The notes: generated by a model not told the origin, from the letters alone. A stretch of 52,966 bases of DNA, filler included, from Jimgerdemannia flammicorona (GCA_003990765.1; 2 parts of 2 records of this genome joined end to end with filler, not necessarily neighbours in it), one strand, 5' to 3'. Counted from the whole stretch's first letter, positions 890 to 26,441 are shown. Numbers and translations: made by a program.

Positions 890-1530
890 ATTGTCGAAAA
901 GAGATGGTGAATACAAGATTCACGTCGCTGTTAGAGAAAGTGTGAGACAGTGTATTTCTGTGATGAAACTGCGACTTTGTTTGCCATACTTAGCGTATAT
1001 GATGACACATTTGTAATTGGCATTGCCAGGCCATCTAAGCATGGTGAGTAATACAAATGAAATGGCATTTGGTTCTGCTCTGTGCACATTTTTTCAACTA
1101 TCTTCCAATTTTTCACCTCAGGAATTTCCATGGTATTCGAGTGGCAACTCCGAAGTATCCGCAATGAAGCGAAGAGCAGGGCTTATGACGTACAATATTA
1201 CGACATTGTCGACATTCCTGGCACCAGCAGCCACAAACTCGAAAGGGATGGTGTACAGCAGAAAGTGTTTATTTGGTGGATTGGTTGTGTTCAGACGTAA
1301 AACATCCGAAATTCTCCACCCTAGCTTTCATGAGTTCTGTATGGAGCACATCATAGAAAAAAAAATCCCAGTTCATTCTGGGTTTGCATCATACCAATAC
1401 CGAGCCCACCGAACAGTCTACCACAAATGCCGAAAAGCATATACATAGTTCTGGTGAAGAAAGCCATGGAGACTTTGCGATCTGGTCTGGAGAAGACGCA
1501 CTTTATAATTAGGACAGAACCTCCTCCCGG
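890..1530 (+). pseudogene. Probable upstream exons (unrecognised N-terminal domain) of the NLR-like pseudogene
   Basis: Short coding-like blocks bounded by GTGAG donors and YAG acceptors (e.g. VYDDTFVIGIARPSKHG | GISMVFEWQLRSIRNEAKSRAYDVQYYDIVDIPG), on the same strand directly upstream of the NB-ARC region. Domain not recognised. Confidence 0.35.
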
Positions 1531-1689
1531 TGAGTTATAGTCTCTTCTCCTCCCTGAGCAACGATTGTTGGAAACAATGCAACTCACAATACCTGCTTAT
1601 TTAAATACACAAACTGATTGAATTTTAAGATGAGCGAAAATTTTTGTATAAATGTGAACAGGGGGGAACTAATAGGAATCGCGCATTGA

Positions 1690-3033
1690 CAAAGATGCTT
1701 TCCATTCACAAAACCAAAGTCGGCAATGAGAACCAACCAGCAACGGAAGTAGATTTTGGCAACGTTCACACATATGGAGAATTTGTTGGGCGTCAGCAAG
1801 AGCTCCAAAAATTGGAAGAACTACTGAGTGATAAGGAAATCCAATATATCACCATTCGCGGTTTCGGCGGAATGGGAAAAATGGCATTGGCAATTCAAGC
1901 GGTCAAGAACTTCAACTCTGGCAGAGTTCTGGTGATATCACTTGTTGGAAACCCAAGCTCCGATTCAGTATCGCCAGATTTTTCAACATTAACATCGAAA
2001 CGTCTCGAGATCCTAAGATTCGACAAAATTCAGTGATGATCAAGTTAGAAAGCAGAGGAGATATACTGTTTTATCTTGACAATATGGGAGATCTCAAATG
2101 CAACCGAACAAGGAGACCCAGCGACCAAAGGGGATGCAATATCTTTGATCAGATTTTTCAACAGAATATCGAAGAACATCAAAATTCTCGCAACATCAAG
2201 AATTGCACTCGGCTGGCCTAATGAATCATTTGTCAAGTTGAATGGCTTAGAACCACATGATGGCATGCAGGTCTTTCGGCAACAGGCCTCTCAACGTTTA
2301 ATTGACATATGCAATGACTATTAGTTGCCTTGCAGGTGGTCATCCATTGTTGATCCGTCTTCTTGGAGGTATCTTCAACAACTACATAGAGCCTGTTGAC
2401 CAATTCAGTGACCGGCTATGGAATGCAACAGATATTTTTGGGGATTGTTACAATTCGGTTGACACCTGCATCCAGTATAGCTTTGATTACCTATTTGATA
2501 GTCTTAAATCATTGCTTGGCCAGTTAAGACTATTTGAAGTTCTCTTCTCACAACGCTCGCGAAGAAGGCTTTGGGTAATAACGCTACATTGGTATCATCT
2601 GCAGAGAGCAATTTACACAAACTTTGGCCGCAGAGCTGGCTGAATGAACTCAAGTACGATTCAAGGTTCGGTGACTGGCGTCGCAGGTTTATCAAGATTT
2701 TGCATCCTACATCCTCGATTACGTGGCGATGCCGAAAATTCGGCTATCGACATGTGGTATGATTCGGAGATACAGTTCTATACCGCCCTATGTTATGGAA
2801 TAGGATTCAGCGTTGCAAATGATCTAGTGAAGATTGAGTGGTGCACTATAGCTGCGGTGAATGGACATTTAGAAGCGCAGCTAACCGTTGCTGTTTGTTA
2901 CGAAGGAGCGGGCGTTGCCATAGACAAGAAGGCGTTTGAATGGCACTTGAAAGCTGCCAAAGCTGGCGACAAAGGAGCACAAAAAAAGGTTACAAAGTGC
3001 TATGGAATGGCGATGGCGTTGAGAAGAACTTAG
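1690..3033 (+). pseudogene. NLR-like STAND (NB-ARC) ATPase with winged helix and Sel1-like repeats, frameshifted
   Basis: Motifs FVGRQQELQKL, P-loop ITIRGFGGMGK(M), Walker B DILFYLDN, ILATSR..LG..NE, GGHPL, CIQYSFDYL, then Sel1 AQLTVAVCYEG.GVAIDKKAFEWHLKAA. They are spread over at least 5 reading frames. Confidence 0.8.
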
Positions 3034-3129
3034 ACAGAGTGGATAATTGGTGCCAAATTCATAATTCAAACAAACCAAGTTTGATCTTTCTCTTCCTCCG
3101 TTACTGGGTGGTCATGTGACATTGTTCCG

Positions 3130-3485
3130 ATCAACCCAACGCCAACGTCGAAGTGAAGGATAGGCATGGTCGGACCTCACTACACCTAGCTGCAGAGAAA
3201 GGTCACATTGATGCGTTTGAGCTACTCGTATTCGAATTCAATGCAAACATCAATACAAAGGACAAGAAAGGTAACATGCTAGTGCACCGCGCCGCAGAAA
3301 TCGGGCATGTCGAGTTCATAGCTATCCTCACAGCCGTATTCGGGGTGGACGCCAATGCCAAGAACAACGAGGGATGGACTCCTCTGCACACGGCTGCGAA
3401 AGGAGGGTACATCAATGTCGTGAGGCTTCTAGAGGCTGAATTTGGGACGCCAAGAACAAAGACGGATTGATGCCATTACGCTATG
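3130..3485 (+). pseudogene. Ankyrin-repeat fragment (about 3-4 repeats), truncated by retroelement relic
   Basis: GRTSLHLAAEKGH, GNMLVHRAAEIGH, GWTPLHTAAKGGY; frameshifted next repeat (KDGLMPLRY) abuts the integrase relic. Confidence 0.8.
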
Positions 3486-3900
3486 TGGACATCACAATAG
3501 ATATAATTAGCCTTCTACCCCTGGTAACTGATATGTCATTATCACCATAGATCTCTTTATAAAATGTATGAGGCTGAATCCCTCAAAGAAACCAATGCTC
3601 AAGTAATTGCTGATTTTTTGCACAAGGAAATCATCTGTCAATTCAAGACCCTAAAGCAAATAATGATAGATAGAGAAACAGAATTGTAAACCAGCTCTTT
3701 GAGGTTCTTTATAAGAAGTATAAGATCCAGCATATCTGAACCACAACATATTATCCTCAAGGAAACAGATAAGCAGAACAGATTAATAGAACTCTCAAGA
3801 ATATTATCACTAAGATCTATAATAATTATAAAAACTATAAAAACTGAGATCATAATTTGTTAGTAATATTATTAGCTCTCTAAGATATATAATTAAAAAG
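3486..3900 (+). mobile_element. Degenerate Ty3/gypsy integrase core fragment
   Basis: Translation through stops/frameshifts: IDII.LLP..YVIITIDLF..EAESLKETNAQVIADFLHKEIICQF..QIMIDRETE..KIQHI*TTTYYPQGN..E.INRTLK. Confidence 0.7.
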
Positions 3901-4633
3901 CACTCATTTTATATCTTGAGAATTACTGTTCAGAGAAAAAAGTTCTGAAGAAAGCTTATTATATATCTAATAAAGATATAATGATTATATCAAATAAAGA
4001 AGACTAAAGATTATATAATTAAGAAATAGACTCTATAATAGAATAATATAAAAAAGATTTATAAGCTTCTAGAGATTATTAAGATAAGAGATCAAGTTTA
4101 GTATATTAAAATATAATAGAAGTTTTATAGTTATAAAAACTAGAGCCTAAATAGAAAGAATCTTATTTTATTTAAAATATAAAAAGAATTATTTTTTATT
4201 ATAAAAATTCTCAAATATATATAATTATCTCTATTACTATATATTAAAACTGACTTAAGAAATATATATTATAGCAAATAACTCATATATTATTATTACT
4301 CTTAAGATCATAAGTATTACTCAATAAGCTATTAAAAAATAATAATATATATATATGTACTATAAGATAGATATTCTATAAGTGCACAACCTCTAAGCCA
4401 TCAAAATCACATATCACCCTCTGAATAAGCCACTGAAATCACATACAACCTCTGAACAAATCTGGAAATCACCTGCTTGATCATAAAGCTGAGTCAACAC
4501 GAAGTCACGGAACACAAGATTCACACAAACAGAATCTTACCAATTAGGACCAAATGCATATATACCGAGTATCAAAACATATCAAATCAGAGAACTAAAA
4601 CAAATAACAATCATAACTTCCAAACACACAAAT

Positions 4634-5731
4634 ATGACCACTAAGATCTACACTCATATCTATACTGACATTTAGAATACCATTATCAACAGAGCCACTT
4701 CCCCTCTACCCCTCATGAATATCTATAGCCTGGCACTCCTCTATTTTGTGGAAGCCTGATGGAACATCCTAAATATACTCAACGAGGTCCACCAAATTGG
4801 ACAAATCTCAAGCTACTACTAGATCAGTCACCTCCTAGAAGACATGGTTGAACACCACTATGATACAGATATTACCCAGATGTCTCAATATCAGAAACTT
4901 ATTGTCTGCAAATACTGAGAACTCTTCTACAAGTATAGCACTGTTATTTTCTGTCTCTGAGTTACTATAGCTGAAATGGTTGCTACCCTGTCCTATGGCC
5001 AAATCGACAATATGATACAAGAACTCAACTACAAGTATCTCAAGTACATCAAAACCACAGACAGAACCTTCCTACACCCCAATGATCATATCCTACAAAT
5101 GCCTCAAGTCAGATATACTATGAAGGATGTCTACAATATAATCCACTTCAATGAAGATGAAGCAGAAGACAATGATCTCTCTGATGCTGACATAACCTCA
5201 AGCCAAGGATCCCTGCCAACCCTGATCATACTGCCAACCTTACCGATGAACTTACAACAATTCATAACAGTATATGAGACTTATTGGGACAATGACCACT
5301 GGTACAAATACCAACCTGCGTTCACCCCCAATTACTTCAACTACAATAAAGAAACTAGAGAACACAACCTGTACCTCCAGACAACCCTCGAGATTGAACC
5401 AACCACTCTACCACCTGAGTATGAGTAACATGAACCACAGCTACCAGCTTACTACAATTCCATGACTCATAGTGCTGTAACCTACAGAAGGTATGCAGAC
5501 AGTGAATCTAATGAAAGCAAAGATGATGTACCTCTCCTCCACCCACCAATATCTTATCCAGCATACAAGACAGATGATGCTATTCTGTAGGATAGTGATG
5601 AAGTTCCAATGTATTATTACCTCAGTGAACAAGGAGAAGTAATCCATGAACTACTTTTCCTAGACAACTACTTCATCAGAGATGATGTCATCGATGGTGA
5701 TATCATCGAAGACTACCCAGACAGTGTTTAA
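4634..5731 (+). pseudogene. LTR-A U3-embedded ORF (365 codons plus stop; internal stops, no frameshift)
   Basis: ATG 4634 to TAA 5731 = 1098 nt. Internal stops are transition-derivable and mostly sense codons in sister copies (9021-10118 minus, also 1098 nt; 17280-18364 minus, 13-bp deletion). Confidence 0.7.
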
Positions 5732-5920
5732 ACCTAGAAATAGCTTAGTAGTCATAGTATAGTTAGATTAGTCTTGTACAACGTAACTGTGAACTGACTC
5801 AGCAGTCAGATGATCTCTTGATATGTCAGATCACTCTTGTACTACATGACTGCATTCCAACTCAGCAAGGTACTTAGTGCTACATCCATATCTAGCATAG
5901 TCCAGATAGCCCCTCACTAG

Positions 5921-6049
5921 TATATATACCCCCTCCTCCAGACCTCAGAATCTCAGACTTAAACATACAAGAACACTTCTGAACACTTCCCCACAATATT
6001 CCTTTATATAACTACTCCTAGTATAGCAATATCATGAATAGTGAATAAA
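5921..6049 (+). promoter_or_regulatory. LTR TATA box (5921-5928) and AATAAA polyA signal (6044-6049)
   Basis: CTAGTATA(T/A)ATACCCCC and GAATAAACC conserved in all five family-1 LTR copies, downstream of the U3 ORF stop. Confidence 0.6.
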
Positions 6050-6414
6050 CCTATTTAATGACTCACAAACCACTCTTAAGTAAATCTGCTCCCCGTTAGG
6101 TCCCACTCCTAACCCCATTATGAAATTTTCTAATTGGGTATTGTCTGCAGCGATACACTGATTCAACTAAGCTGGTCTTAGTTTCTTGAACTTCTTAAAA
6201 TATAGAAAATTCTGAACATCCAAAACTAGTCTGAAAAAGGACTTTGGTTGAGACATCCACCTGATCTTGAAATCAATAAGTGTAGAGGATGTACTCTATA
6301 TGAAATTAATCTTGATCATAAGAAAAAAGTCTTCCAGAATATCTAGAACTTCCAGAAAACTCTTTCAGAACTACATAATGATTACCCTAAAAAGCAACTC
6401 TCTTACATATTCCA

Positions 6415-7907
6415 TGTAAGTGCACAACCTCCAAGCCACCAAAATTGTATAACATCCTCAGAACTAATTTGAAAACCATATGTGAGACTACAAAACAAGT
6501 TACTGAAGAGATTATCTAGTTATATGAAATATGCCAGTAAGCATGAGAACCCACCACCAAGATATAAGAATACTAGAAGAAGTATTATAACCACAAGACT
6601 GACTCTGAACCACTATAACTAGTTTGGTATACTGTACTATTACAAAAAGAAACCAAAAGTACCAAACTCAAATCGAGACAAGAAGAACCCTATCTCATCT
6701 ACCAAAAGGTTTATGAATTGCACTTATCAACTCAAGACCAAGATATACTGTGGCTATATAAGATCTCATTACTTAGCAGAAGTAAAACACATTTGAACAA
6801 CTCTGTTCACTCTATCTATATCACCTCCGTTGAAGAGTGACAGATGCTTCATCTGAACTCAAGAAAGCCGACATCATCGAAACCAATCTCAAGCCATCTA
6901 TGTGACAGATATTACTACTAGAAATTGCCTTGAATTACAGAAAATATCATTTCTGAGAGGTTCAAACCCCCAGCCACAACATTGGGAGCCCTTACCCTAG
7001 ATAAGAATGGGCAGTCCTCACAAATGCACCAGCAGACCAAAAAAAAAGAGAACCAAGACCTGTTATCCTTATATAACTACTACTACTAAGGATAGCCTTA
7101 ATCTTGTAAGAGATAGAAGTAACAATACCTTGAAACTGATGATATCAGAAGTCAGAAAACTGCTCAGACTTTGTCAGCAATAATATCATCAATAGTGATG
7201 TCATCAAAGACTACCCAGACAATATCTAAACCTATAAATAGTTTAGCAGTTATAGTATAGTTAGATTAGCCTTGTATGACATGACTGTGAACTGACTCAG
7301 CAGTCAGATGATTTCTTAATATATCAGATTACTCTTATACTACGTAACTACATTCTGACTCAATAAGATACTTAGTGCTACATCTATATTTAGCATAGTC
7401 CAGATAGTCCCTCACTAGTATAAATACCCCCTCCCCCAGATCTCAGAATCTCAGACCTGAACAATCTGAATACAACTCCTGAGTACTTCTCTACAATATC
7501 CCTTGATACAACTACTCCTAGTATAGCAATATCATGAATAGCGAATAAACCTATTTAATAACCCACAAACTACTCTTAAGTAAATCTGTTTCCCATTAGG
7601 TCCTATTCCTAACCCCATTACGAAATTTCCTAATTGGGTATTGTCTGCAGTGATATACCAATTCAACTAAGCTGGTCTTAGTTTCTTAAACTTCCTGAAA
7701 TATAGAAAATCCTGAACATCCAGAACTAGTCCGAAAAAGGACTTTGGTTGAGATGTCAACCCAATCTTGAAATCAATAAGCATAGAGGATGTACTCCATA
7801 TGAAATTGATCTTGACCATAAGAAAACAGTCTTCCAGGATATCCAGAACTTCTCAAAAACCCTTCCAGAACTATGTAATAGTTACCCTAAAAAGCAACCT
7901 TCTTATA
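6415..7907 (+). repeat. 5' LTR subtype B
   Basis: TGTAAG...CTTATA; same length as and collinear with 21620-23112. Confidence 0.9.
6531..7229 (+). pseudogene. LTR-B U3-embedded ORF (232 codons plus stop; second copy 21736-22434)
   Basis: ATG 6531 to TAA 7229 = 699 nt, in frame with the shared C-terminal D.I.DYPD. tail. Stops are TAA/TGA/TAG at positions readable as Q/R/W; some are sense in the other copy. Confidence 0.5.
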
Positions 7908-7909
7908 AC

Positions 7910-7922
7910 TTGATAGCAGTGG
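7910..7922 (+). promoter_or_regulatory. Putative primer-binding site (eroded TGGTAGC.., tRNA-iMet-like)
   Basis: TTGATAGCAGTGG just after the 5' LTR. A different element (27332-27345, minus) has TTAGTAGCAGTAG; the two together suggest ancestral TTGGTAGCAG. Confidence 0.4.
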
Positions 7923-8343
7923 TTTACAATTCAATTCCGCTTCAAGATGCTTCCTCACTCAGCTATAAAACCCCTCTATGAATTTCTACAAGTTGGTATC
8001 AAGTCCAATCTCTGAACTGGAATTTATTCTAAACCATCTGACAATCTGGAGAGAATTGAACCTAACATACAAGGACAATTTGACCTCCACACCTGCAACA
8101 AGTGGGACAAACTTCATTCAAAGAAAGAAGTACTCTAGTTAAACTAGCAAATAGATGAAACCCTATTCACCGAACTCCTTGTACTACACCCAGTAAGTCA
8201 AGACAAAAAAGGTCTTATAGAAGCCTTCTTTACTCTTCTCAATAAGAGTTTTGTCAGCTCTACAAATCTGAGCAACCTAGGACAACCAGCAGTAGTTTTT
8301 CTAGCCTTAGTCCTTCACAAAGCCCAAGCCTCTGTAGCTAAGT

Positions 8344-10410
8344 TGTAAGAGGGTTGCTTTTTAGGGTAACTATTACATAGTTCTAGAAGGGTTTTCTAGA
8401 AGTTCTGAATATTCTGGAAGACTGTTTTCTTATGGTCAAGATCAATTTCATATAGAGTACATCCTCTATGCTTATTGATTTCAAGATTGGGTTGACATCT
8501 CAACCAAAGTCCTTTTTCAGATGAGTTCTGGATGTTCAGGATTTTCCATATTTCAGGAAGTTCAAGAAACTAAGACCAGCTTAGTTGAATTGGCATATTG
8601 CTGCAGACAATACCCAATTAGGAAATTTTATGATGGGGTTAGGAGTGGGACCTGACAGAGAGTGGATTTACTTAAGAGTGGTTTGTGGGTTATTAAATAG
8701 GTTTATTCGCTATTTATGATATTGCTATACTAGGAGTGGTTGTATAAAGAGATATTGTGGGGAAGTATTCAGAAATGTTCTTGTGTGTTCGAGTCTGAGA
8801 TTCTGAGGTCTGGGGGAGGGGGTATTTATACTAGTGAGGGGCTATCTGGACTATGCTAGATATGGATGTAGCACTAAGTATTTTGCTGAGTCAGAATGCA
8901 GTCACATAGTATAAGTGTAATCTGATATATCAAGAGATCGTCTGACTGCTGAGTCAGTTCACAGTCATGTTGTACAAGGCTAATCTAACTATACTATGAC
9001 TGCTTAGGCTATTTATAGGTTTAGGCACTATCTGGGTAGTCCTCGATGATATTACCATCAATTGCATCATCTCTGATGAAGTAGTCATCTAGGAAGAGTG
9101 GTTCGCAGATTACCTCTCCTTGTTTGCTGAGGTAATAATATATTGGAACTTCATCTCCATCTCACAAGATGGCATCATCAGTGTCATATACTGGATAAGG
9201 TATTGGTGGGCGAAGGAGGGGTGCATCATCTTCATTTTCATCAGATTTGCTATCTACATACCTTCTGTAGGTTATAGCACTATGAGTCGCAGGGTTGTAG
9301 TAAGCTGGTGGTTATGGTTCATGTTGCTCATACTTGGGTAGTGGAGTGGTTGGTTCAATCTCGAGAGTTGTCTGAAGGTACAGGTTGTGTTCTCCGGTCT
9401 CTTTATTGTAGTTGAAGTAATTGGAGGTAAATGCAGATTGGTATTCGTACCAGTGGTCATTGTCCCAATAAGTCTCATATGCTGTTATGAGTTGTTGTAA
9501 GTTCATTGGCAAGGTTGGCAATGTGATCAGAGTTGGCAGAGATCCTTGGCTAAAGGTCATGTCAGCATCAGAGGGATCATTGTCTTCTGCTTTGTCTTCA
9601 TCAAAGTGGATTATATTGTAGATGTTCTTTATGGTGTATCCAACTTGGAGCATTTGCAGGATATGATCATTGAGATGTAGGAAGGTTCTGTCTGTGGTTT
9701 TGACATACTTGAGGTACTTGTAATTGAGTTCTTATATCATGTCATCGATTTGGCCATAGGACAGAGTAGCAACCATTTCAGCTATAGTAACTTGGAGGTG
9801 GGAAATAACAGTGCTATACTTATAGAAGAGTTCTCGATATTTGCAGGCAATGAGCTTCTGGTGTTGAGACATCTGGGTAATGTCTGTATTATGGTGGTGT
9901 TTAATCATGTCTTCCAGGAGGTAGCCGATCTGGTAGTAGCTTGAGATTTGTCCAATTTGGTGGGCCTCGCTAAGCATGTTCAGAGTATTCCATCAGGCTT
10001 CTATGAAGTAGAGGGGTGCTAGGCTATAGATATTCATGAGGGGCAGAGGGGGTGTGGCTCGGTTGACAATGGTATTCCAAATGTCAGCGCAGATATAGGT
10101 ATAGATCTCAGTGGTCATGTTTGTGTGTTTGGAAGTTATAGTTGTTATTTGTTTTAGTTCTCTGATTCGACGCATCTTAGTGCTTAGTATATATATATAC
10201 ATTTAATCCTAATTGATAAGATTCCGTTTGTGTAAATCTTGTATTCTGTGACTTTGTAGTGACTCAGCTTTATGCACTGTGACTTCGGTTTGACTCAGCT
10301 TCATGATCAAGCAGATGATTTCCAGATTTGTTCAGAGGTCACATGTGATTTCAGTGACTTGTTCAGAGGGTGATGTGTAATTTCGGTAGCTTGGAGGTTG
10401 TACACTTACA
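8344..10410 (-). repeat. 3' LTR subtype A (2067 bp)
   Basis: Reverse complement of 4377-6407 type; intact TG...CA termini; purine tract adjacent. Confidence 0.9.
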
Positions 10411-10539
10411 ACTCTCCTCTTCTTAGCTTTTAATGTTCTCATTGGGGCCTTCTAATTTTTTTCTAGTGTTGTTACACTGTTTGAGAGGATAATATATAGT
10501 ATGTACAGATAGGTGCGGAGTATTTGGTTCTAGTTGTTC

Positions 10540-11830
10540 AAGAAATCATATTCCTGAACTAGGTCAGTAGCATTCTAGAGATTGGTCTTGAGTTCCCAGG
10601 TTGTATTGTAGATTAGGTAACCTTTTCATTTGACAAGATACTCAGAGTGGCTCTTGTTGCCATGTTTATTGAGGATTTGTTCAACTTTGTACTCTTCTTG
10701 GTCATTAATAATGATAGGTACAGGTGGTTTGGTGGTCTGGTTTGGAAATAGCTCGTCATCATTCTCATTATATCACTTGAGACATTGAACATTAAAGACT
10801 GGGTAAATCTTAATAGTGTCTGATAGCACCAATTTGTAGGAGGTTGGAGAGACTTATGCAATGACTTCAAATGGTCCAATGAACTTGCTGTTCAGCTTTG
10901 TAGATGGTCTGTGCTTAAGGTTATCAACTCGGTATCCTCTGATGTCTAGTAGAACTTTTTCTCCAATATCAAAGGTTTCTTCTCAGCAGTGTTGGTTAAC
11001 ATACTGTGACTGTTGTTCTTGAGCTCATAATAAATTCTCAATGGCAATCTGGCTTAGATTGTGCATTCGGAGTAAGAATTCTTCAATAGCTTCAACTGTA
11101 GAGAGTTCTTCAGTGGTTCGGATAAGTGTCAAAGGGGTGTTTGGATTTTATCCAGTGTTGGCGAAGAATGGGGTCATTCCAAGAGAGGTTTGCTTGCTAT
11201 TGTTATAGGCAAACTCGACTGTAGTGAGGTATTCATGCCAGTCATCTTATCTATAGGAAACATAGTTCCTTAGCATTTGTGCTAGAGTTCGGTTCATTCT
11301 TTCGGTTTAGCCATTAGTTTCTGGATGAAAGGCTGTAGATAGGGCAAGTTTTGTTCCAAGGTATGCATAGAGGGCTTTCCAAAAATGGCTGGTGAATTTT
11401 GGGTCTCAGTTGCTAATAATGATCCTAGGAAGACCATGATAGTGGAAGATGTTGTCAAATAATAGTATGGCTATGTCTGGTGCTGTTGCAGTAGTAGTAG
11501 TTGGTACAAAGTGAGCTTATTTGCTGAGATAGTCCACAAAGACAACAATTGCATCTTTTTCATTCTTGGTTCGGGGTAGTTGTACAATAAAGTCCATAGA
11601 GATTTGTTCTCAATTCACAGATGGTACTGGGATAGGGTGAAGTAAGCTAGGTTTTGCTAGTGTTGAGGACTTGTTTCATTGGCAGGCATCGCAGGAAGTG
11701 ATGTAGGTTTTGAGCTAATCTGCCATATGGGGGCAATAGAAGTTTCGGAAGATAACTTCATAACATTTATCAAATCCTAAATGTCCAGCTGTAGGGGCAT
11801 TATGATATTTGAATAGGATAGTCCTTCAGA
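10540..11830 (-). pseudogene. Integrase (HHCC, DDE) and C-terminal chromodomain
   Basis: [40 protein letters not shown]; chromodomain EEYKVEQIL..EYLVK*KGY..TWE. Confidence 0.85.
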
Positions 11831-11999
11831 GGTCTCAGTTGTTTGAGACATATAGTCTGTTTTTGTAGTAGATTCAGTTGGTATTAATGATACTATGTAT
11901 GCTTGTCAGCATTGTCACTATTCAGGATTTCTCGCAGTGCTTGAGCTTCCTTATCATCGGCATATACTGTAATAATTTGTTCCATGATGGAGTTTGTAA

Positions 12000-13330
12000 C
12001 CAAGGTGAGAGTTTGAATAACCTCTTCAATTGGTAGTCTGGAGATTGCATCAGCAACAATATTTTCCTTACTAGGGTGGTACTGGATTTTGTAGTCAAAG
12101 TTGGTGAGGACTTTCATCCATCTGGCTTGCTTTCGAGAAAGGGTAGCCTGTGTTTTGATATTGACTAATGATTTGTGGTCAGTCAATACGGTAAAGTGTG
12201 CTCCTTCTAGGTAGGGTCACTATTTGATCAGAGTATCTACGATGGCTAGCATTTCCTTCTCGTGGGTTGTATAGTTAATTTCAGCATCATTGAACTTGTG
12301 GGAGTGATAGGCCACAGGGTATCCTTCTTGCATGAGTACTGCTCCAAGGGCTAGATCAGAGGCATCAGTGGTAACTTCATATGACAGTACAGGGTTTGCT
12401 ACTTGAAGTACTAGAGTGGTTATCAGGGCATCCTTTAGTACTTGAAAGGCAGTATCTTGCTCAGGTCCCCAAGTTACAAGATTGTTGAAGTCTTTCTCTT
12501 GTTTTATAGTCCAGGGTTGTTCTTGTTTCTTGCTATGCTTGGTCATTTGGGTGAGAGCAGTAGCAATTTTAGCAAAGTTGGCAACAAATCGCCTGTAATA
12601 GTTTGCTAATCCCAGGAATGACTGGAGGTCTTTCAGCTTTTTGGGTCTGGGCCAATCCTTGATTGTAGAGATTTTGCTGGAGTCCACTTTGATTCCATTT
12701 GGGGTAATGATGTGTCCAAGGAATTGAATTTCTTTCAGGAGAAATTCGCACTTGCTGAGTTTTGCAAAGAGTCAGTTTTCTCGGAGTTTCAGTAGTACTA
12801 GTTCAAGGTATTCAAGATGTTCCTCCAGAGTTTTGCTGAAGACTAGGATGTCATCAATGTAGACAACAATGAATTTGTCTAGGTATGGGTGCAGGATAGT
12901 ATTCATCAGGGTCTAGAAGGTTGCAGGAGTATTAGTTAAGCAAAAGGGCATAACCAGGAACTCAAAGTATCCATAGCGAGTTCAGAAAGCTGTCTTGTAG
13001 ATGTCTTCTTCTTTCATAGCAATTTGCCAGTAACCATTTCACAGGTCAAAGGAGCTCATGAATTGTGGATTGGTGAGCCTATTGAATATTTCATTGATCC
13101 TTGGTAGTGGGCAACAGTTCTTGATGGTCTATTCATTGAGATCATAGTAGTCAATGAACATTCGCAGGTCTTTTCCTTTTTTGACAACAAAGAGGACCAG
13201 TGCGCCATAGGGTGATACACTGGGTCTAATGAATTCTTGTTCTAGGAGTTCATCAATTTCCTTCTTGAGTGCATCAATTTCTCTCGGAGATATGTGGTAG
13301 ATTGACTTGAAGGCTGGTTTGGCATCTGAG
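12000..13330 (-). pseudogene. Reverse transcriptase and RNase H
   Basis: [81 protein letters not shown]. Confidence 0.92.
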
Positions 13331-13619
13331 ATAGTCTTGATTGCATGGTCTACTGCTCATTTGGGAGGTGAGCTTTTTCAGGAATATGTCTTGAAATTTC
13401 TGGAGTAGTGGTCTGACATGGCTGTCAACTTTGGAAAAATCTTCTTCAGAGTTCTCAGGTTCTCCTTTGGATGGACAGATGGAGATAGCGAAGAGAGGGC
13501 ATTTCTTGGCCAATTTCTTAAGTTGTAGCTTATTGATGTAGGTGATCTTTAGTCCAGGGTCACTAGAATTAAGTGGGTCCTTTTTGCCTTGCAGTTTGAA
13601 GTTGTGGCGTCCTTTCTTG

Positions 13620-13960
13620 ATGGTCAGAGAATGGTTTACCTAATCAATCATGGGGTTCTCTTGTTTCAATCATGGAGTTCTAAGGATGATTTCATTGTCA
13701 GGAAGTGGTACAATTTGGAGAGTAACATGTACTTGGTAGTCTTCAATTCAGAAAGGTAGATTGCAGACTTCTTTGCTAATAACATGTGAGGTTTCATCAG
13801 CTATAGCAACTGCTTGAGTTTGCTGTACTAGAGAGGTGAAGACCTTGAGTCTGTTGGCTGTCTCTTCATTGATGAAGTTGCCTGAGGCACCACTGTCTAT
13901 CATAATCTTGACAGGTGCTCGGTTGACAAAAGCCTTAAGTGTGAGCAGTTTGTCTGATCT
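13620..13960 (-). pseudogene. Retropepsin-type aspartic protease
   Basis: VKIMIDSGASGNFI ... IIL.TPW..QENPMIDW; second copy ~20880-21210 on plus (NSGA). Confidence 0.85.
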
Positions 13961-14169
13961 AATGATGGTGATTTTAGTTGTAGGAGCTTTTCTTCTATTG
14001 GTTCTTCTTTGTACCAGTTCATTGATACAAGAGAAGCAATCATCAATCATTCGGGAAGAGTACATTCCAATGCCATGAGGGCATCGGCCACTTGGTACAT
14101 ATCCATCTTCGATCTTCTTATAGAATTGTTCTTCTTTGCTCATGGTAGGTTGGGCTGGGGTCTTGTTTG

Positions 14170-14590
14170 ATGAGCCAAATCCTTTGGATTCTCAGATTCT
14201 CAGATGGTGGGCAGTAGTTCAGGGACTTCCTTGACTGTCAGGGTTGACTCGATTTTTTCGAATAAGATCTGGGCAATGCAGAAACCAATAGGGATCTTGA
14301 AGGGTGTCCAACTGTGGTTTCGAATGAGGACAATGATTTCACCTGTATAATCTTCATCAATAACTCCTCCTTCTACTGAGAGTTCTTTCAATGCTAGGCT
14401 GCTGTGACAGCATATTCTTCCAATATGTCCTTCAGGAATTTGGATACTAATTTCTGTATAGACTTGCTTGACTTCTCAGTTGGAAACTGTAGCTTCTTCA
14501 GCTGTATACAGGTCATATCCAGCTGCTTTTTGACTTCCTTTGGTTGGGGCCTTAGCAGTTTATCTTAACTTGACAAAGTTTAATGTTCTG
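14170..14590 (-). pseudogene. Trimeric dUTPase domain between Gag zinc knuckle and protease
   Basis: Motifs AAGYDL, GRI..SSLA, GVIDEDYTGEI, IAQILF, R.SKGFGSS; second copy ~20255-20660 on plus. Confidence 0.9.
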
Positions 14591-14649
14591 GTGGTCAGGT
14601 TGTTGAGATGGTGCAGAGTGGTAACAGTTGCTCATGTTACTGTTTGGAG

Positions 14650-15700
14650 TTTTCAGTTAGGGCAGGCACTGGCCATGTATCCTGTCTTTTGGCAATAGAA
14701 GCATGCTCCACTTCTTCAAAGTTCATTCCTTTCACCTTCAGTGAGTTTTTTGAAGGTGCTTGGCTGAGTGGGTTCATGATTTCTAGGTGTCCAAGAGATG
14801 GATGTGGAGGGAGCTTGAGATACTTCATGCTTGGGTTCTTCTTTCTTGGTCCAAGTCTTTTCCTTGTTGTTGAATTGTCTTCAGGGCAGAATTGGTCCGG
14901 CTGTTAGGATTCACTTGACCATAGTCTTGATTCTTGCCAGGCACCATTGTTGGTGGTCACAACCAACTGGACAGCCTTGTTCTCGGATTTTTCTAGTAAG
15001 CCATTCAGGTAGGGCATCAAATAAATGGTCTGCTCTTATACCATTTTGTGCTTCATTGTTGGTAATATATCCTAGACCAACAGTGTTCAGGAGTGACTCA
15101 AGTTTTATACAGAAGGTTTCAAATTCTTCTTTGCTATGTATATCAAATTTGAGGTTGCGAAGTTTTACTTGGGATTCAGTGATTATGGTTTCGCTGTGGT
15201 ATTGGGCAATCATGAGTTGTTTGAGTCCAGGGGCTGCAGAATGGGCTCCATATCCTAGGGCATTGTTTGCTGCATTCTGAGCAACTACTGCAGGTTGGAT
15301 ATCCCATGTGAGGGGTTTTTCAGGAAGGGTTTACCACCATTCTTTGGCAGGTTCTCAGAAGAATGTAACAACTTGGCAGATATAGGCTGTAGTGGTAGCA
15401 AAGAGTTGTTCCAGAGTGTGGTCTTGATTGTTTGTCAGAACGCGGTCAGCAACTCGCTCATTTGTCCATTGATTGACTTCAAAGTTGGTGTCAACTACAC
15501 TAATGAAGCTTTGAACTTCTTGTGCAGTACCATTGAAGGTAGGTAGGCTCAGATTTTTGGTAGGTCAGGTCTGTTCAGCTAAGGCAGTAATGGTTGCTGC
15601 CATTATGGCTACCTAGGCTGTGAGGTCTAGAATCTGTTGGTTTGCCATATTGTTTACTGGAGGCAGTTGGACTGCTAGTAGTGGTATTACTGGTACTACT
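14650..15700 (-). pseudogene. Gag with CCHC zinc knuckle
   Basis: LPTFNGT.QEVQSF.. capsid-like start; C-F-Y-C-QKTG-H-MASA-C knuckle (consensus of two copies); second copy ~19100-20180 on plus. Confidence 0.75.
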
Positions 15701-16602
15701 TGAGGTATTGGTGCAGAGTGTGATGGGGTTCTTTGGGTCTGTGTAAGTTGCTGGAGTAATAGTTGTGGATCTGGAGTAGGGGCTTGATAGATAGCTGTTT
15801 GTTACTGAGTAGGTGTATTCTGTCCTAATGGAAGGGCATCTCCTTCGGTGGTGTATCTGGGATCAAATTCACTGAGATACTCCTCCTCTTCTTCAGTTTG
15901 GTCTCTGTGTAATTGGGTTTGCTCAGCATCAAAGTAGACAGAATCAGTTGTATATCTGATTTCAGATGGACTTAATTCAAAGTCAAGTTCAGGTTTAGTA
16001 TTGGTTTCAGATTTAGGTAGGGCTGTAGCAGGGCCTGCTTTAGGTTTGGGGTCAGGTAGTTGATGAAGGGTTTCTCTTGCTTCTTCTTTAAGAATATAGC
16101 AGGCCTTGCTGTTCTGGAATCAGTAGTATAATGTGCTGGTATGGCGAAAATCAGTAGAGTTGAGCCACTTGGCTACAGAGGCTTGGGCTTTATGAGGAAC
16201 TAAGGCTAGAAAGACTGCTGCTGGTTGTCCTAGGTCACTCAGATTTGTGGAGCTGACAAAACTCTTGTTGAGAAAAGTAAAGAAGGCTTCAATAAGACCT
16301 TCTTCATCTTGACTTGCTGGGTGTAGTGCAAGGAGTTCGGTGAATAGAGTTTCGCCTATTTGTTGGTTTAACCAGAGTACTTCTTTCTTTGAATGAAGTT
16401 TGTCCCACTTGTTGTAGGTGTGGAGGTCAAATTGTCCTTGTATATCAGGTTCAATTCTCTTCAGATTATCAGATGGTTCAGGATAAATTCCAGTTCAGAG
16501 GTTGGGCTTTATACCAACTTGTAGGAATTCTCAGAAGGGTTTGTAGTGGGGTGAGGAAGTATCTTGAAGCGGAATTGGATTGTAAAACTGATACTATCAA
16601 GT

Positions 16603-18652
16603 TGTAAGAGGGTTGCTTTTTAGAGTAACCATTACATAGTTCTAGAAGGGTTTTCTGGAAGTTCTGAATATTCTAGAAGACTGTTTTCTTATAATCAAGA
16701 TCAATTTCATATGGAGTATATCCTCTATGCTTATTGATTTCAAGATCAGGTTGATGTCTCAACCAAAGTCCTTTTTCGGACTAGTTCTGGATGTTCAGGA
16801 TTTTCCATATTTCAGGAAGTTCAAGAAACTAAGACCAGCTTAGTTGAATTGGCGTATTGCTGCAGACAATACCCAATTAGGAAATTTCATAATGGGGTTA
16901 GGAGTGGGACCTGATGGGGAGTGGATTTACTTAAGAGTAGTTTGTGGGTTATTAAATAGGTTTATTCGCTATTCATGATATTGCTATACTAGGAGTAGTT
17001 GTATAAAGGGATATTGTGGAGAAGTATTCAGAAATGTTCTTGTGTATTCGAGTCTGAGATTCTGAGGTCTGGGGGAGAGGGTATTTATACTAGTGAGAGG
17101 CTATCTGGACTATGCTAGATATGGATGTAGCACTAAGTACTTTGCTGAGTCGGAATCCAGTCACATAGTACAAGTGTGATCTGATATGTCAAGAGATCAT
17201 CTGACTGCTGAGTCAGTTCACAGTCATGTCATATAAGGCTAATCTAACTATACTATGACTGCTTAGACTATTTATAGGTTTAGGCACTGTCTGGGTAGTC
17301 CTCGATGACATCACCATCAATTGCATCATCTCTGATGAAGTAGTCATCTAGGAAGAGTGGTTCGCAGATTACCTCTCCTTGTTCACTGAGGTAATAATAC
17401 ATTGGAACTTCATCTCCATCCCACAAGATGGCATCATCAGTGTTATATGCTGGATAAGGTGTTGGTGGGCAAAGGAGGAGTGCATCATCCTCATTTTCAT
17501 CAGATTTGCTGTCTGCATACCTTCTGTAGGTTACAGTACTATGAGTCATGGGGTTGTAGTAAGCTGGTGGTTGTGGTTCATGTTGCTCATACTTGGGTAG
17601 TGGAGTGGTTGGTTCAATCTCGAGGGTTGTCTGAAGGTACAGGTTGTGTTCTCCAGTCTCTTCATTGTAGTTGAAGTAATTAGGGGTGAATACAGATTGA
17701 TATTCATGCCAGTGGTCATTGTCCCAATAAGTCTCGTATGTTGTTATGAATTGTTATAAGTTCATTGGCAAGGTTGGTGGTGTGATCAGGGTTGGCAGAG
17801 ATCCTTGGCTAGAGGTCATATTGGTGTCAGAGGGATCATTGTCTTCTGCTTCATCTTCATCGAAGTAGATTATATCATAGATGTCATTCATGGCATATCC
17901 AACTTGGGGCATTTGCAGGATATGATCATTGGGGTATGGGAAGGTTCTGTCTGTGGTTTTGACATACTCGAGGTACTTGTGGTTGAGTTCTTGTATCATG
18001 TCATTGATTTGGCCATAGGACAGGGTAGCAACCATTTCGGCTATAGTAACTCAGAGGTAGGGAATAATGGTGCTTTATTTATAGAAGAGTTCTCAATGTT
18101 TGTGGGCAATGAGCTTCTGGTGTTAAGACATCTGGGTAATGTCTATATCATGGTAGTGTTCGATCATATCTTCCAGGAGGTGGCTGATCTGGTAGTAGCT
18201 TGAGATTTGTCTGATTTGGTGGGTCTCGCTAAGTATATTCAGAGCATTCCATTGGGCTTTCACAAAGTAGAGGAGTGCTAGACTATGGATATTCATGAGG
18301 GGCAGAGGGGGTGTGGCTCGGTTGATAATGGTATTCCAAATGTCAGTATGGATACAGTGGTCATGTTTGTGTGTTTGGAAGTTGTAGTTGTTGTTTGTTT
18401 TGGTTCTCTAATTTGATGTGTCTCAGTGCTTGGTATATATACATTTGATCCTGATTGGTAAGATTTCATTTGTATAAATCTTGTGTTCTGTGACTTCATA
18501 TTGACTCAGCTTTGTGCACTGTGACTTTGGTTTGACTCAGCTTCATGATCAAGCAGGTAATTTTCAGATTTGTTCAGAGGTCACATGTGATTTCAGTGGC
18601 TTGTTCAGAGGGTAATGTGTAATTTCAGTAGCTTGGAGGTTGTGCGCTTATA
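16603..18652 (-). repeat. 5' LTR subtype A (2050 bp)
   Basis: Collinear with 8344-10410; PBS-like sequence adjacent at ~16588-16600. Confidence 0.9.
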
Positions 18653-21619
18653 CAAGTGGCTCAACTCTACCAACTTTCACCATACTAGGACCAAGACTGC
18701 ACTATATGTACTACCGATTCCAGAACAACAAGGCCCACCATATCCTTAAAGAAGAAGCAAGAGAAACTCTTCATCAACTATCTGACCCCAAACCTGAAGT
18801 AGGCCCTGCTACAGCTCTACCTGAATCTGAAACTAATACTGAACCTGAACTTGACTTTGAATTAAGTCTGTCTGAAATCAGATATACAACTGATTCTGTC
18901 TACTTTGATACTGAGTAAACCCAATTACATGGGAACCAAATCAAAGAGGAGGAGGAGTATCTTAGTGAATTTGATCCTGGATACACCAGCGAAGGAGAAG
19001 CACCTCCATCAGGACAGAATATACCTACACAGTAACAAATAGCTATCTATCAAGCCCTTACTCCAGACCTACAACTACTACTCCAACAACTTACATAGAT
19101 TCAAAGAACACCCTCACACTCTGCACCAGTATCTCAAGTAGTACCAGTAACACTACTACCAGTAGTCCAACTGTCTCCAGTAAACAATATGGTGAACCAA
19201 CAGATTCTAGACCTCACAGCCCAAGTAGTGATAATGGCAGCAACCATTACTGCCCTAGCTGAACAGACCTGACCTACCAAAAATCTGAGCCTACCTACCT
19301 TCAATGGTACTGTACAAGAAGTCCAAAGCTTCATTAGTATAGTAGACACCAACTTCGAAGCCAATCAATGGACCAATTAGTGAGTTTCTGACCACATTCT
19401 GACAAACAATCAAGACCACACTCTGGAACAACTCTTTGCTACCACTACAGCCTATGTCCACTAAGTTGTTACATTCTTCTGAGGACCTGCTGAAGAATGG
19501 TGGTGAACCCTTCCTAAAAAACCCCTCACATAGAATACCTGACCTGCAGTAGTTGCACAGAATGCAGCAAATAATGCCCCAGAATATGGAGCCCATCCTG
19601 CAGCCCCTGGACTCAAACAACTCATGATTGCTCAATACTATAGTGAAACTATGATCGCTGAATCCCAAGTAAAACTCTGCAACCTCAAATTTGATGTACA
19701 TGGCAAAGAAGAATTCAAAACCTTCTGTACAAAACTCGAGTCACTCCTGAACACTGTTGGCCTAGGATATATCGCCAATGATGAAGTATGAAATAGTACA
19801 AGAGCAGACCATTTATTCAATGCCCTGCCTGAATGGCTTACTAGAAAAATCCAAGAACAAGGCTACCCAGTTAGTTGTAATCACCAACAATGGTGCCTGG
19901 CAAGAATCAAGACTATGGTCAAGTGAATCTTAATAGCTGGACCAATTCTGCCCCAAAGACAATTCAACAACAAGAAAAAGACTTAGACCAAGAAAGAAGA
20001 ACCCAAGTATGAAGCATCCTGAGCTCCCTCCACATCCACCTCTTGGACACCCAGAAGTCATGAACCCACCCAGCCAAGTACCTTCAAGAAACTCACTGAA
20101 GGCAAAAGGAATGAACTTTGAAGAAGCAGAGTATGCTTCTATTGCCAAAAAACAGGACACATGGCCAGTGCCTACTCTAACCGAAAACTCTGAACAACAA
20201 CATGAGCAACTGTTACCACTCTGCACCACCTCAACAACCTGACCACCAGAATACTAGACTTTGTCAAGTTAAGGCAAACTGCCAAGACCCCAACCAAAGG
20301 AAGTCAAAAAGCAGCTGGATATGATCTGTATGTAGCTGAAGAAGCTACAGTTTCCAACTGAGAAGTCAAGTAAGTCTATACAGGAATCAGTATCCAAATT
20401 CCTGAGAGACATGTTGGAAGAATATGCTGTTGCAGTAGCCTAGTATTGAAGGGACTCTCAGTAGAAGGAGGAGTCATTGATGAGGATTATACAGGCGAAA
20501 TTATTGTCCTCATCCAAAACTATAGTTGGACACTCTTCAAGATCTCTATAGGTTTCTGCATTGCCCAGATCCTATTTGAAAAAATCGAGTCAACCCTGAC
20601 AGTCAAGGAAGTCCCTGAACTACTACCTACCATCCAAGGATCCAAAGGATTTGGCTCATTAAACAAGGCCCTAGCCCAACCTACTATGAGCAAAGAAGAA
20701 CAATTCTACAAGAAGATCAAAGACGGATATATACCAAGTGGCCGATACCCTCATGGCATTGGAATGTACTCTTCCTGAATGATTGATGATTGCTTCTCTT
20801 GTGTTAATGAACTGGCACAAAGAAGAACCAACAGAAGGAAAGCTCCTACAACTGAAATCACCACCATTGGATCAGACAAACTTCTTATACTTAAAGCTTT
20901 TGTCAACCAAGTACCTGTCAAGATTATGATAAACAGTGGTGCCTCAGGCAACTTTATTAATGAAGAAACAGCCAATAGACTCAAGATCTTTATCTCTTCA
21001 GTACAACAAACTCAAGCAGTTGCCACAGCTGATGGAACCTCACATGTTATTAGCAAGGAAGTCTGCAACCTACTCTTCTGAATTGGAGACTACCAAGTAC
21101 ATGTTACTCTCTAGATCGTACCACTCCCTGATAATGAAATCATCCTTAGAACCCCATGGTTGAAACAAGAGAACCCCATGATTGATTGGATAAACCATTC
21201 TCTGACTATCAAGAAAGGATGTCATAACTTCAAACTATAAGGCAAAAAGGACCCACTCAATTCTAGTGACCCTGGACCAAAGATCACCCACATCAACAAG
21301 CTACAACTTAAGAAATTGGCCAAGAAATGCCCTCTCTTTGCCATCTCCATCCGCCTATCCAAAGGAGAACCTGAGAACTCTGAAGAAGATTTTTCCAAAG
21401 TTGACAGCCATGTCAGATCACTACTCCAGAAAGCCTGAGATACATTTCTGAACCAAACCACAGAACCATCTATATCTGTCATTATTAATAATCAAGAAGA
21501 ATACAAAGTTGAACAAATTCTCAACAAATATAGTCAGAAGAACCATCCAAATGGTACAACAACACCAGAACAAATTAGAAGGCCCTGACAAGAATGTCAA
21601 AAGCTAAGAAGGGGAGAGT

Positions 21620-23112
21620 TATAAGCACACAACCTCCAAGCCACTAAAATCGTATAGCATTCTCAGAACTAATTTAGAAACCACATGCAAGACTACAAAA
21701 CAAGTTACTGAAGAGATCATCTGGTTATACGAAATATGCCAGCAAGCACAAGAACCCACCACCAAGATACAAGAATACTAGAAGAAGTACTACAACCACA
21801 AGACTGACTCCAAATCACTATAACTAGTTTAGTATACTGTATTATTATAAAAGAAAACCAAAAGTATCAAACTCAAATTAAGATAAGAAGAACCCTATCT
21901 CATCTACCAAAAGGTTTATGAATTATACTTATCAACTCAAGACCAAGATACACTATGACTATATAAGATCTCATTACTTAGTAGAAGCAAAATGCATTTG
22001 AACAACTCTGTTTGCTCTATCTGTGTCACCTCTATTAGAGAGTGACAGATGCTTCATCTGAACTCAAGAAAGCCAACATCATCGAAACCAATCTCAAGCC
22101 ATCCATGTGACAGATATTACTACTAGAAATTGCCTTAAATTATAGAAAATATCATTTCTGAGAGGTTTGAACCCCCAGCCATGACATTGGGAGCTCTCGT
22201 CCTAGATGAGAATGGCCAGTCCTCACAAATACACTAGCAGACCAAAAAAAAAGAGAACCAAGACCTGTTATCCTTATACAACCACTGCCACTAAGAACAG
22301 CCTTAATCTTGCAAGAGATAGAAGTGACAACACCTTGAAACTGATGATATCAGAAGTCAGAAAACTGCTCAGACTTTGCCAGCAATGATGTCATCAATAG
22401 TGATATCATCAAAGACTACTCAGACAGTGTCTAAACCTATAAATAGCTTAGCAGTCATAATATAGTTAGATTAGCCTTATACAATATAACTGTGAACTGA
22501 CTCAGCAATCAGATGATTTCTTGATATATCAGATTACTCTTGTACTATATGACTGCATTCCGACTCAGTAAGGCACTTAGTACTACATCCATATTTAGCA
22601 TAGTCCAGATAGCCCCTTACTAGTATAAATACCCCCTCCCCCAGACCTCAGAATCTCAGACCTAAACAATCTGAACACAACTTCTAAGTACTTTCCCACA
22701 ATACCTCTTGACACAACTACTCCTAGTATAGCAATATCATAAATAGTGAATAAACCTATTTAATAACCCACAAACCACTCTTAAGTAAATCTATTTCCTG
22801 TTAGGTCCTATTCCTAACTCCATCATGAAATTTCCTAATTGGGTATTATCTGCAGTGATATGCCAATTCAACTAAGCTGGTCTTAGTTTCTTGAACTTCC
22901 TGAAATATGGAAAATCCTGAACATCTAGAACTAGTCCAAAAAAGGACTTTGGTTGAGATGTCAATCTGATCTTGAAATCAATAAGCATAGAGGACATACT
23001 CTATATGAAATTGATCTTGACCATAAGAAAACAGTCTTTCAGAATATCCAGAACTTTCCAAAAACCCTTTCAGAACTACGTAATGGTTACTCTAAAAAGC
23101 AAACCTCTTACA
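21620..23112 (+). repeat. 3' LTR subtype B
   Basis: Follows PPT; TATAAG...CTTACA; followed by TSD TTCCA. Confidence 0.9.
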
Positions 23113-23560
23113 TTCCACATTATATATCTTCTAGAATATATATAATCTCATTTTTAGAAAATCCTGACTTATGTATAAAAACCTCTATATTGACTGATGA
23201 ACTAATATAATCTCTTTAGGAAATATCAAGTTACAACTAGAATATATTAAGAAGAAAATAAAATCCAAATATAATATTATCTTTACTATCTAAACAAAAA
23301 AGCTAATTTAAAAACTAGATAAATATATATATCTATATATATATATACTATTAAGGAATCATTAGTGAATAATAATGATAAGAATGATAATCTTTCTGAG
23401 TTACTAAAGGATAAAGATGATGAAGAAAATAATCTCTAAAAACTACTTAAGAAATATAAAGATATTTTTCAAAAATTCTAAAAACTACTATTTATTTGAA
23501 TAGTAGAATATAGCATTAAGACTACTTCTAGTTATCTCTTTCTCTACTATTATACTAGTT
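23113..23560 (+). mobile_element. Older gypsy protease/pre-RT relic that is the host of the nest (continuous with ~4200-4376 and 6408-6414)
   Basis: YNLIFRKS*LMYKNLYID**TN resembles YDLILGKPWL..NP.IDW.TN; LLKKYKDIF..VEYSI.T resembles pre-RT linker. Confidence 0.5.
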
Positions 23561-24714: not shown

Positions 24715-24755
24715 ATAGAATATTTCAGAGACAAATTACCTATTTAGGAGAAAAT

Positions 24756-25220: not shown

Positions 25221-25255
25221 TATCTAATTATATATATATCTACTACATTATACTA

Positions 25256-26440: not shown

Positions 26441-26441
26441 G

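Follow-up and report, generated by a model that had tools for sequence, protein, structure and literature searches.

A probable gene inside the long terminal repeat of a fungal Ty3/gypsy chromovirus, present as three decayed copies

Long terminal repeats (LTRs) of a Ty3/gypsy chromovirus in Jimgerdemannia flammicorona contain a complete sense-oriented open reading frame (ORF), and we conclude, with a probability of about 0.8, that this is a real and ancestrally functional LTR-resident gene that has been pseudogenised in the copies described here. These copies lie in a stretch of 52,966 nucleotides, filler included, composed of two parts of genome assembly GCA_003990765.1 joined end to end, which we refer to in its whole length as the window. 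Self-BLAST of the window together with a MAFFT alignment defines three LTRs of 2.05 kb (copies A, B and C; Table 1), and one sense frame of 366 codons including the stop is common to all of them. The frame corresponds to columns 296-1393 of the 2070-column LTR alignment and lies wholly within the LTR, upstream of its TATA box; because of this location it is found in both LTRs of the element to which B and C belong, and so twice per element, and once more in the solo LTR, copy A. No paralogue of the ORF was found elsewhere in the window.

The initial annotation had reported the same sense frame in three long LTRs, ending some 190 bp before the TATA box, two copies of exactly 1098 nt without a frameshift, and internal stops that are of transition type and largely copy-specific. 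All of these observations are confirmed. The stop codon lies 190 bp before position 5921, and the two full-length copies are A and B, which have no indels relative to each other; copy C has a 13-nt deletion in codons 5-9, and copy B is the best preserved of the three. Across the three copies the internal stops fall in 12 codon columns. The stop is confined to a single copy in eight of these columns and shared by two copies in the other four; no column has it in all three. In 11 of the 12 columns transitions alone suffice to produce the stop, from TGG, CGA, CAG or CAA; the single non-transition stop is a change of TAT to TAA at codon 101 of copy C. In three of the four two-copy columns CGA has become TGA in two copies, with CAA in the third or, at codon 95, CGA in copy B, and in the fourth column, codon 319, TGG has become TAG in copy A and TGA in copy B. 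The shared CGA-derived stops point to parallel hits at CpG sites.

Neither a stop nor a frameshift is fixed in all three window copies of the ORF. The number of fixed stops is zero in the ORF frame, compared with 3-21 in each of the other five frames. We generated 3000 column shuffles in which the dinucleotide content of copy B was retained, as were the column patterns across the three copies; a shuffle has on average 17.7 fixed stops in its 366 codons, and none of the 3000 lacks them. The C-terminal 251 codons taken by themselves are likewise never without a fixed stop (0/3000), and the N-terminal 114 codons are so in 13 of the 3000 shuffles. Strand bias, which the initial annotation had named as a possible source of the ORF length, thus does not explain the open frame. 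The base composition by codon position also shows a three-nucleotide periodicity, with p of about 1e-10 in each copy for the C-terminal part and p of 3e-4 to 8e-4 for the N-terminal part, and none in the LTR flanks before and after the ORF (p 0.5-0.9). We regard the periodicity as supporting rather than independent proof, since the absence of stops alone yields part of it.

Relatives of the ORF were sought by word-indexed searches over 5.8 billion protein clusters and by an exhaustive HMMER search over 1.84 billion representatives, and two real ones only were found, P0002 and P0004. P0002, an intact ORF of 247 amino acids on a 998-bp contig in ENA, is the sole real HMMER match among the representative proteins, which fits a gene private to a transposable element. 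Its alignment with the window ORF starts at Met115 and extends to the final residue, with 60-64% identity and 199 of 250 positives, and contains only two gaps, each of two residues and in frame, with the C-terminal motif and the end being the same. At 55 of its 247 columns (at least 22% of residues) P0002 differs from all three copies beyond what decay would produce, and it is therefore a truly diverged relative in which the frame has been kept. A search for longer proteins found no fused form of P0002. The other HMMER match, P0003, is a repetitive bacterial Ig-like protein and was rejected as a compositional match, and scans of metagenome, viral and genome contigs found no relatives of the ORF.

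P0004 is a 128-residue JGI 'hypothetical protein' encoded on a 1180-bp contig; it begins at ATG1 of the window ORF, remains free of stops past Met115 to residue 128, and is 81% identical to copy B. At sites where the window copies show a stop, Cys, His, Gln or Tyr, P0004 has Arg, and C>T/G>A decay of the window copy accounts for 30 of its 34 differences to copy A and 19 of its 24 differences to copy B, whereas the reverse direction, with P0004 as the decayed partner, accounts for none (copy A) and one (copy B). Because the differences follow the decay of the window copies, P0004 is a far less decayed member of the same family, and it shows the N-terminal part to be open and in frame with the C-terminal part.

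Selection on the ORF was assessed by simulating neutral drift from the window copies; frameshifting indels are not part of the model and would lower the odds of neutrality further. Drift to 60% amino acid identity introduces a mean of 3.0-5.2 new stops, with no new stop in 1-15 of 400 runs per setting, and drift to 75% identity introduces a mean of 2.9-3.3, with no new stop in 34-52 of 1200 runs. The observed share of BLOSUM-positive positions is 0.80 for P0002, compared with a simulated maximum of 0.787 in 3600 runs. As proxies these simulations provide moderate, though not decisive, evidence of purifying selection on the ORF.

Divergence among the three copies within the ORF is 10-15%, and 95% of the differences are transitions. 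In the LTR copies, polarised by majority rule, C>T changes affect 23 of 34 CpG sites, 122 of 323 CpA sites and 24 of 279 CpT sites, a spectrum that has the look of repeat-induced point mutation (RIP) or of methyl-cytosine deamination. The two LTRs of the one chromovirus are 6-10% apart. We propose that RIP-like or deamination-type mutation, C>T and G>A, disabled the window copies once they had been inserted. Related contigs of 80-100% likeness, covering the LTR and the adjoining integrase region, are present in their hundreds to thousands in soil metagenomes (X1, X3) and in organism A (X2, X7), filling 30 of 30 bins of 8344-11400, and the LTR family must therefore be highly repeated in those samples. 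Among the 40 of 745 differences listed, which do not extend to the four stop positions of copy B, these contigs differ from copy B mostly by A>G or T>C on the plus strand, which identifies copy B as the decayed state.

Table 1. Coordinates of the long and short LTRs, the LTR ORF and associated signals in the window.
Feature	Coordinates	Strand	Remarks
Long LTR copy A	4375..6407 (start 4374/5)	+	apparently a solo LTR; no internal region after it
Long LTR copy B	8344..10408	-	3' LTR of the chromovirus; purine-rich tract (PPT) directly before
Long LTR copy C	16603..18654 (end 18654/5)	-	5' LTR of the same element as copy B
LTR ORF, copy A	4634..5731	+	1098 nt; 7 internal stops: codons 14, 42, 63, 95, 109, 265, 319
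LTR ORF, copy B	9021..10118	-	1098 nt; 4 internal stops: codons 42, 129, 269, 319
LTR ORF, copy C	17280..18364	-	1085 nt; 5 internal stops in the aligned frame: codons 85, 95, 101, 109, 208
C-terminal 251 codons, from Met115	4976..5731	+	aligns end to end with intact 247-residue P0002 (61-63% identity, tblastn)
TATA-like motif	4555..4565	+	~70 bp upstream of ATG1; closely resembles the main TATA; candidate second core promoter
Main LTR TATA box	5921..5928	+	TATATATA at 5921; ORF stop codon (5729-5731) 190 bp upstream
AATAAA	6044..6049	+	presumed poly(A) signal; putative R/U5 border; ~315 nt past the ORF stop
Internal region of the chromovirus	10409..16602	-	6.2 kb; gag, dUTPase, aspartic protease, RT, RNase H, integrase (H2C2, SH3), chromodomain; many stops and frame changes
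Short 5' LTR of sister element	6415..7911	+	1.49 kb
Short 3' LTR of sister element	21620..23112	+	last ~19 ORF codons only, as a remnant (22375-22431)

The predicted product has about 365 residues and consists of an N-terminal domain of roughly 110 residues followed by an acidic tail of about 250 residues rich in Tyr, Pro and Asp. Its predicted isoelectric point is 4.4 for copy B and 4.05 for P0002; the copy B protein has 54 acidic and 20 basic residues, with 35 Tyr and 23 Pro, and the net charge falls toward the C-terminus to -8 or -10 per 40 residues. The acidic-hydrophobic motif YFIRDD.ID..I.(D/E)YPDS, with which the tail ends, is the best conserved motif of the alignment. AlphaFold predicts four to five helices in the N-terminal part with low confidence (predicted local distance difference test, pLDDT, 57.6; predicted template modelling score, pTM, 0.48), and neither AlphaFold (pLDDT 33) nor the ESM Atlas model of P0002 (pLDDT 0.39) gives a confident fold for the C-terminal 250 residues. 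Foldseek with the N-terminal domain found no match at E<=0.001, its hits being confined to generic helical bundles with E of 1 or more, Pfam contains no accepted family, with a sole weak match to DUF5338 below cut-off, and profile searches of the PDB gave nothing better than E of 1 or more; Bak/Bcl-2-like PDB chains, at E of 1 or more, were judged to be chance matches. ESM Atlas matches to the P0002 model have TM scores of 0.30 or less, and the look-alikes of P0004 are uninformative, with recognition below the bar. The same Pfam and PDB profile searches, with Foldseek on the N-terminal domain, found no sequence or fold homology to Sag, Nef or Bel proteins. The product thus appears to be an orphan that belongs to no known protein family.

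The element that carries copies B and C can be classified as a Ty3/gypsy chromovirus from the order of Pfam domains on its read-through frames, which is dUTPase, RVP_2, RVT_1, RT_RNaseH, Integrase_H2C2, SH3_Tf2-1 and Chromo. Its LTRs are about 90% identical, start with TGTATAAG and end with ..TTACA, and a purine-rich tract precedes copy B. This carrier (8344-18654, minus strand) splits a sister element with short LTRs at 8343/8344, and is therefore a nested insertion. The sister (6415-23112, plus strand) is flanked by the target-site duplication TTCCA and lacks the region from reverse transcriptase (RT) to integrase, and its gag/dUTPase/protease region is about 90% identical to that of the carrier. 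No target-site duplication was found for LTR A, and no clean one of 5 bp for the long-LTR element. Searches with the carrier RT/RNase H gave no match among viral contigs and seven loci among genome contigs, none of which belongs to this element family: six (L001-L006) are gypsy fragments of 36-43% identity on short contigs filed under bacterial genomes or metagenome-assembled genomes, and the seventh (L007) is a 19-residue match of 58% identity (E 3e-4) on a 329-kb contig.

Comparison of the short and long LTRs shows that the first ~50 bp and the last 738 bp are common to both, the common 3' part beginning 61 bp before the ORF stop. About 1.24 kb of the long LTR, including nearly the whole ORF, is replaced in the sister by a middle segment of about 700 bp (6465-7167 and 21670-22384) that is unrelated to the long LTR and to the rest of the window and is closed in every frame, with stops common to both copies in all three sense frames. 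Because the middle of the sister LTR has been replaced by unrelated sequence, the LTR behaves, in its 5' part, like a module that can be exchanged, and the existence of sister LTRs without the ORF indicates that it is not required in cis. An ORF-less sister LTR fits a trans-acting product that is used by relatives, and equally fits a dispensable passenger.

The last of these corresponds to an alternative that we consider distinctly unlikely, namely that a fragment of a host or foreign gene was captured into the LTR by transduction or recombination, has no role, and is open because the capture was recent. The exchangeable 5' part of the LTR favours such a capture, as do the variable LTR 5' halves described for crapaud (PMC10787394) and the lack of any recognisable retroelement domain in the protein. 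However, searches of the 5.8 billion clustered and the 1.84 billion representative proteins, which are not exhaustive for a host gene, gave no host homologue beyond the two short-contig ORFs, and the window itself contains none. The ORF sense strand has the A>T and C>G skew of the rest of the element rather than the composition of host genes, for which the skew is near zero (genes at 31-52 kb); this skew and the absence of a paralogue in the window favour a long-resident element gene over recent host capture. The diverged P0002, intact and with the same stop, also speaks for long maintenance and against recent passive capture.

Placement of the ORF within the LTR depends on the positions of the transcription signals. 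Pairing of the TATA box at 5921 with the AATAAA at 6044 gives an ordinary R region of about 100 nt and puts the ORF in the unique 3' region (U3), which from these two positions alone is its most likely location. A U3 ORF sits in the 3' untranslated part of the genomic RNA and not at its 5' end, and it therefore needs a message of its own. Two routes can be envisaged. The product could be translated from a 3'-coterminal RNA of the 3' LTR, either spliced or an internally initiated subgenomic species, as for sag of mouse mammary tumour virus (MMTV), or from a short LTR-internal mRNA running from the TATA-like box ~70 bp before ATG1 to the AATAAA of the LTR, in which case each LTR, solo LTRs included, would form a transcription unit complete in itself. 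In copies A and C the TATA-like motif is followed by no ATG before ATG1, and less decayed metagenome contigs have a closely related version of the motif followed by a C-rich run (place 10212). The 5' end of the LTR (4375-4560) contains short repeated motifs of the GAAATCACA type and of the AAGCTGAGTCA/GAAGTCAC type, and copies B and C, unlike copy A, carry a 31-bp duplication in this segment. Lying upstream of the ORF, these motifs and the duplication are possibly enhancer-like.

The same TATA-like motif raises a second alternative, in which the gene is real but is not in U3: genomic RNA would start from the box at 4555-4565 and the ORF would come first in a very long R or leader, comparable to the additional ORFs found 5' in some plant elements. 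The resemblance of this motif to the main TATA, its distance of ~70 bp from ATG1, and the lack of any ATG between the two in copies A and C are in keeping with such an arrangement. It would however require an R of about 1.5 kb, since no AATAAA other than that at 6044 follows the ORF, whereas the canonical TATA/AATAAA pair gives an R of about 100 nt, and gag would become a downstream cistron. We regard it as very unlikely; it is a variant of the gene interpretation, and its likelihood is not additive with the figure given above. A third alternative, that there is no gene and that the open frame is a by-product of an A/C-rich strand or of cis-regulatory conservation, can point to a G-poor sense strand (0.15) with moderate T (0.24-0.25), to an antisense frame (-0) that likewise has few fixed stops (3 in 366 codons) and to the C-terminal 61 bp common to the ORF-less LTR, such that part of the conservation could be regulatory, but it is close to refuted by the failure of all 3000 composition-preserving shuffles to match the open frame, a periodicity confined to the ORF, two independently assembled database ORFs with the same start or the same stop, and neutral simulations that seldom stay open.

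Several points nonetheless weigh against the interpretation of the ORF as an LTR-resident gene. All three window copies are broken and pseudogenised, with none intact, and the ORF is no more conserved than other LTR sequence, with p-distances of 0.10-0.15 compared with 0.06-0.11 downstream; this between-copy divergence is post-insertion decay and is uninformative on selection. There are just two relatives, both on contigs of about 1 kb without context, and they may not lie in LTRs. P0002 starts at Met115, and the N-terminal domain may not be conserved, or may not be translated, in its lineage; P0004 stops at residue 128, just where copy B has TAA (codon 129), which could mean either that its source copy is likewise interrupted or that the contig runs out there. 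AlphaFold confidence is poor in the C-terminal and N-terminal parts alike (pLDDT 33 and 57.6), and the sister subfamily, with gag/protease 90% identical to that of the carrier, has LTRs without the ORF. Finally, the function proposed below is drawn from composition alone.

The initial annotation had read the ORF as an accessory protein, for example a regulator or an anti-silencing factor, that even solo LTRs disseminate. An ancestrally open coding ORF wholly in the LTR is supported by the shuffles, the periodicity, P0004 and P0002; for a regulatory or anti-silencing function Pfam, PDB, ESM Atlas, AlphaFold and Foldseek provide no evidence. As a function we favour that of a regulator acting in trans on how the family itself is transcribed or silenced, which would combine a helical domain for binding with an acidic tail of the activation type, because a helical domain with a long acidic, aromatic-rich tail resembles transcriptional activators; as an argument by analogy, following the logic of foamy-virus Tas and of Tax of human T-cell leukaemia virus (HTLV), it is a tentative and rather doubtful suggestion. 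Location in the LTR would have the gene copied twice with each insertion and persisting in solo LTRs.

It is also conceivable, if unlikely, that the LTR holds a self-contained gene with its own promoter, ORF and poly(A) signal, encoding a family-specific transactivator or anti-silencing factor that serves all copies. Were this so, each insertion would add two copies capable of expression and each solo LTR would retain one, non-autonomous and ORF-less relatives too would be served by the product, and the element would have a new way to scale the dose of an accessory protein with retrotransposon copy number.

LTRs are as a rule regarded as promoter and terminator modules that do not code for protein, and they are masked ahead of gene calling. 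A conserved ORF of ~1.1 kb wholly within an LTR would extend an arrangement familiar from a few retroviruses, and out of the ordinary for elements of this kind, to a fungal-type Ty3/gypsy chromovirus and add an orphan protein family to the short list of retrotransposon accessory genes. It raises the questions of whether solo LTRs express the gene, whether the product acts on transcription or on genome defence amid RIP-like decay, and why the sister subfamily manages without the ORF. The practical lesson is that long fungal LTRs should be checked for ORFs and for their conservation before masking.

The surroundings of the three LTRs have several further features. Solo LTR A ends 7 bp before the sister element. 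A dUTPase domain lies between gag and protease in both nested elements, at 13900-14500 (minus strand) and 20374-20778 (plus strand), with matches to Pfam PF00692 at E of 3.5e-27 and 9.7e-20 respectively; dUTPase is known from some basidiomycete gypsy elements, from non-primate lentiviruses and from betaretroviruses. Directly upstream of the transposon nest, at 1000-3500 on the plus strand, is a gene resembling those for NOD-like receptors (NLRs) that extends over several frames, with weak below-cutoff Pfam matches to NB-ARC/AAA-type P-loop domains followed by ankyrin repeats, and it is either a pseudogene or intron-rich. Together with the RIP-like spectrum, the dUTPase of the chromovirus and the occurrence of related contigs in soil metagenomes and in organism A, this gene hints at a soil fungus as host, although it is no proof. 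Between the nest and the gene-dense part of the window (GC 0.43-0.53) lies an AT-rich block (23113-31000, GC 0.21-0.35) that may consist of heavily decayed repeats.

Additional ORFs (aORFs) of LTR retrotransposons are known in the plant Ogre, Retand and Grande elements (PMC7264820) and in bdelloid elements (PMC5408684), and CERV of Cer1 is such an ORF (PMC10309623). The window ORF resembles these as an extra, lineage-specific ORF of a gag-pol element, with a regulatory role or none assigned, and often without known domains. It differs in its location inside the repeated LTR unit and not in the internal region (10409-16602), whereas the described aORFs are internal, placed either after the 5' LTR and ahead of gag or after pol and ahead of the 3' LTR (PMC7264820); phrases placing an aORF in, within or inside an LTR have no occurrence in the available text of that plant review. 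Among fungal Ty3/gypsy elements, crapaud of Podospora has subfamilies that differ in the 5' half of the LTR with the rest in common (PMC10787394), just as the long and short LTRs of the window differ in their 5' part, and RIP-type decay is also seen in crapaud (PMC10787394). Unlike the element described here, the available account of crapaud gives gag and pol ORFs alone and no LTR-internal ORF (PMC10787394). Within the collection of papers covered, a full-text literature search gave no account of any fungal Ty3/gypsy element with an LTR-internal ORF, which does not prove that none has been published; wording to the effect that an LTR contains an ORF matched only a paper on MMTV (PMC9412291).

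The closest comparison is with retroviruses, in which ORFs inside or overlapping U3 include MMTV sag, nef of the human and simian immunodeficiency viruses (HIV/SIV), and bel/bet and tas of foamy viruses. The products of nef, bel/bet and tas are trans-acting regulators, and these genes share with the window ORF the presence of coding sequence in the 3' LTR, the acidic tail of the window ORF resembling an activation domain in composition; they only overlap U3, whereas the window ORF is wholly in the LTR, and no homology was found. MMTV sag is expressed from spliced or internal-promoter mRNAs and its product is a membrane glycoprotein. Like sag, the window ORF is a complete sense ORF of ~1 kb in the LTR upstream of the promoter, is present in both LTRs and kept by solo LTRs, and is an accessory gene that is neither gag nor pol. 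Unlike sag, it is carried by a fungal-type Ty3/gypsy chromovirus without env, its predicted product is acidic and mostly without a predicted fold, in contrast to the Sag membrane glycoprotein, and the two share no sequence or fold similarity. The LTR ORF thus lies outside the Sag, Nef and Bel protein families, yet in its placement it is sag-like.

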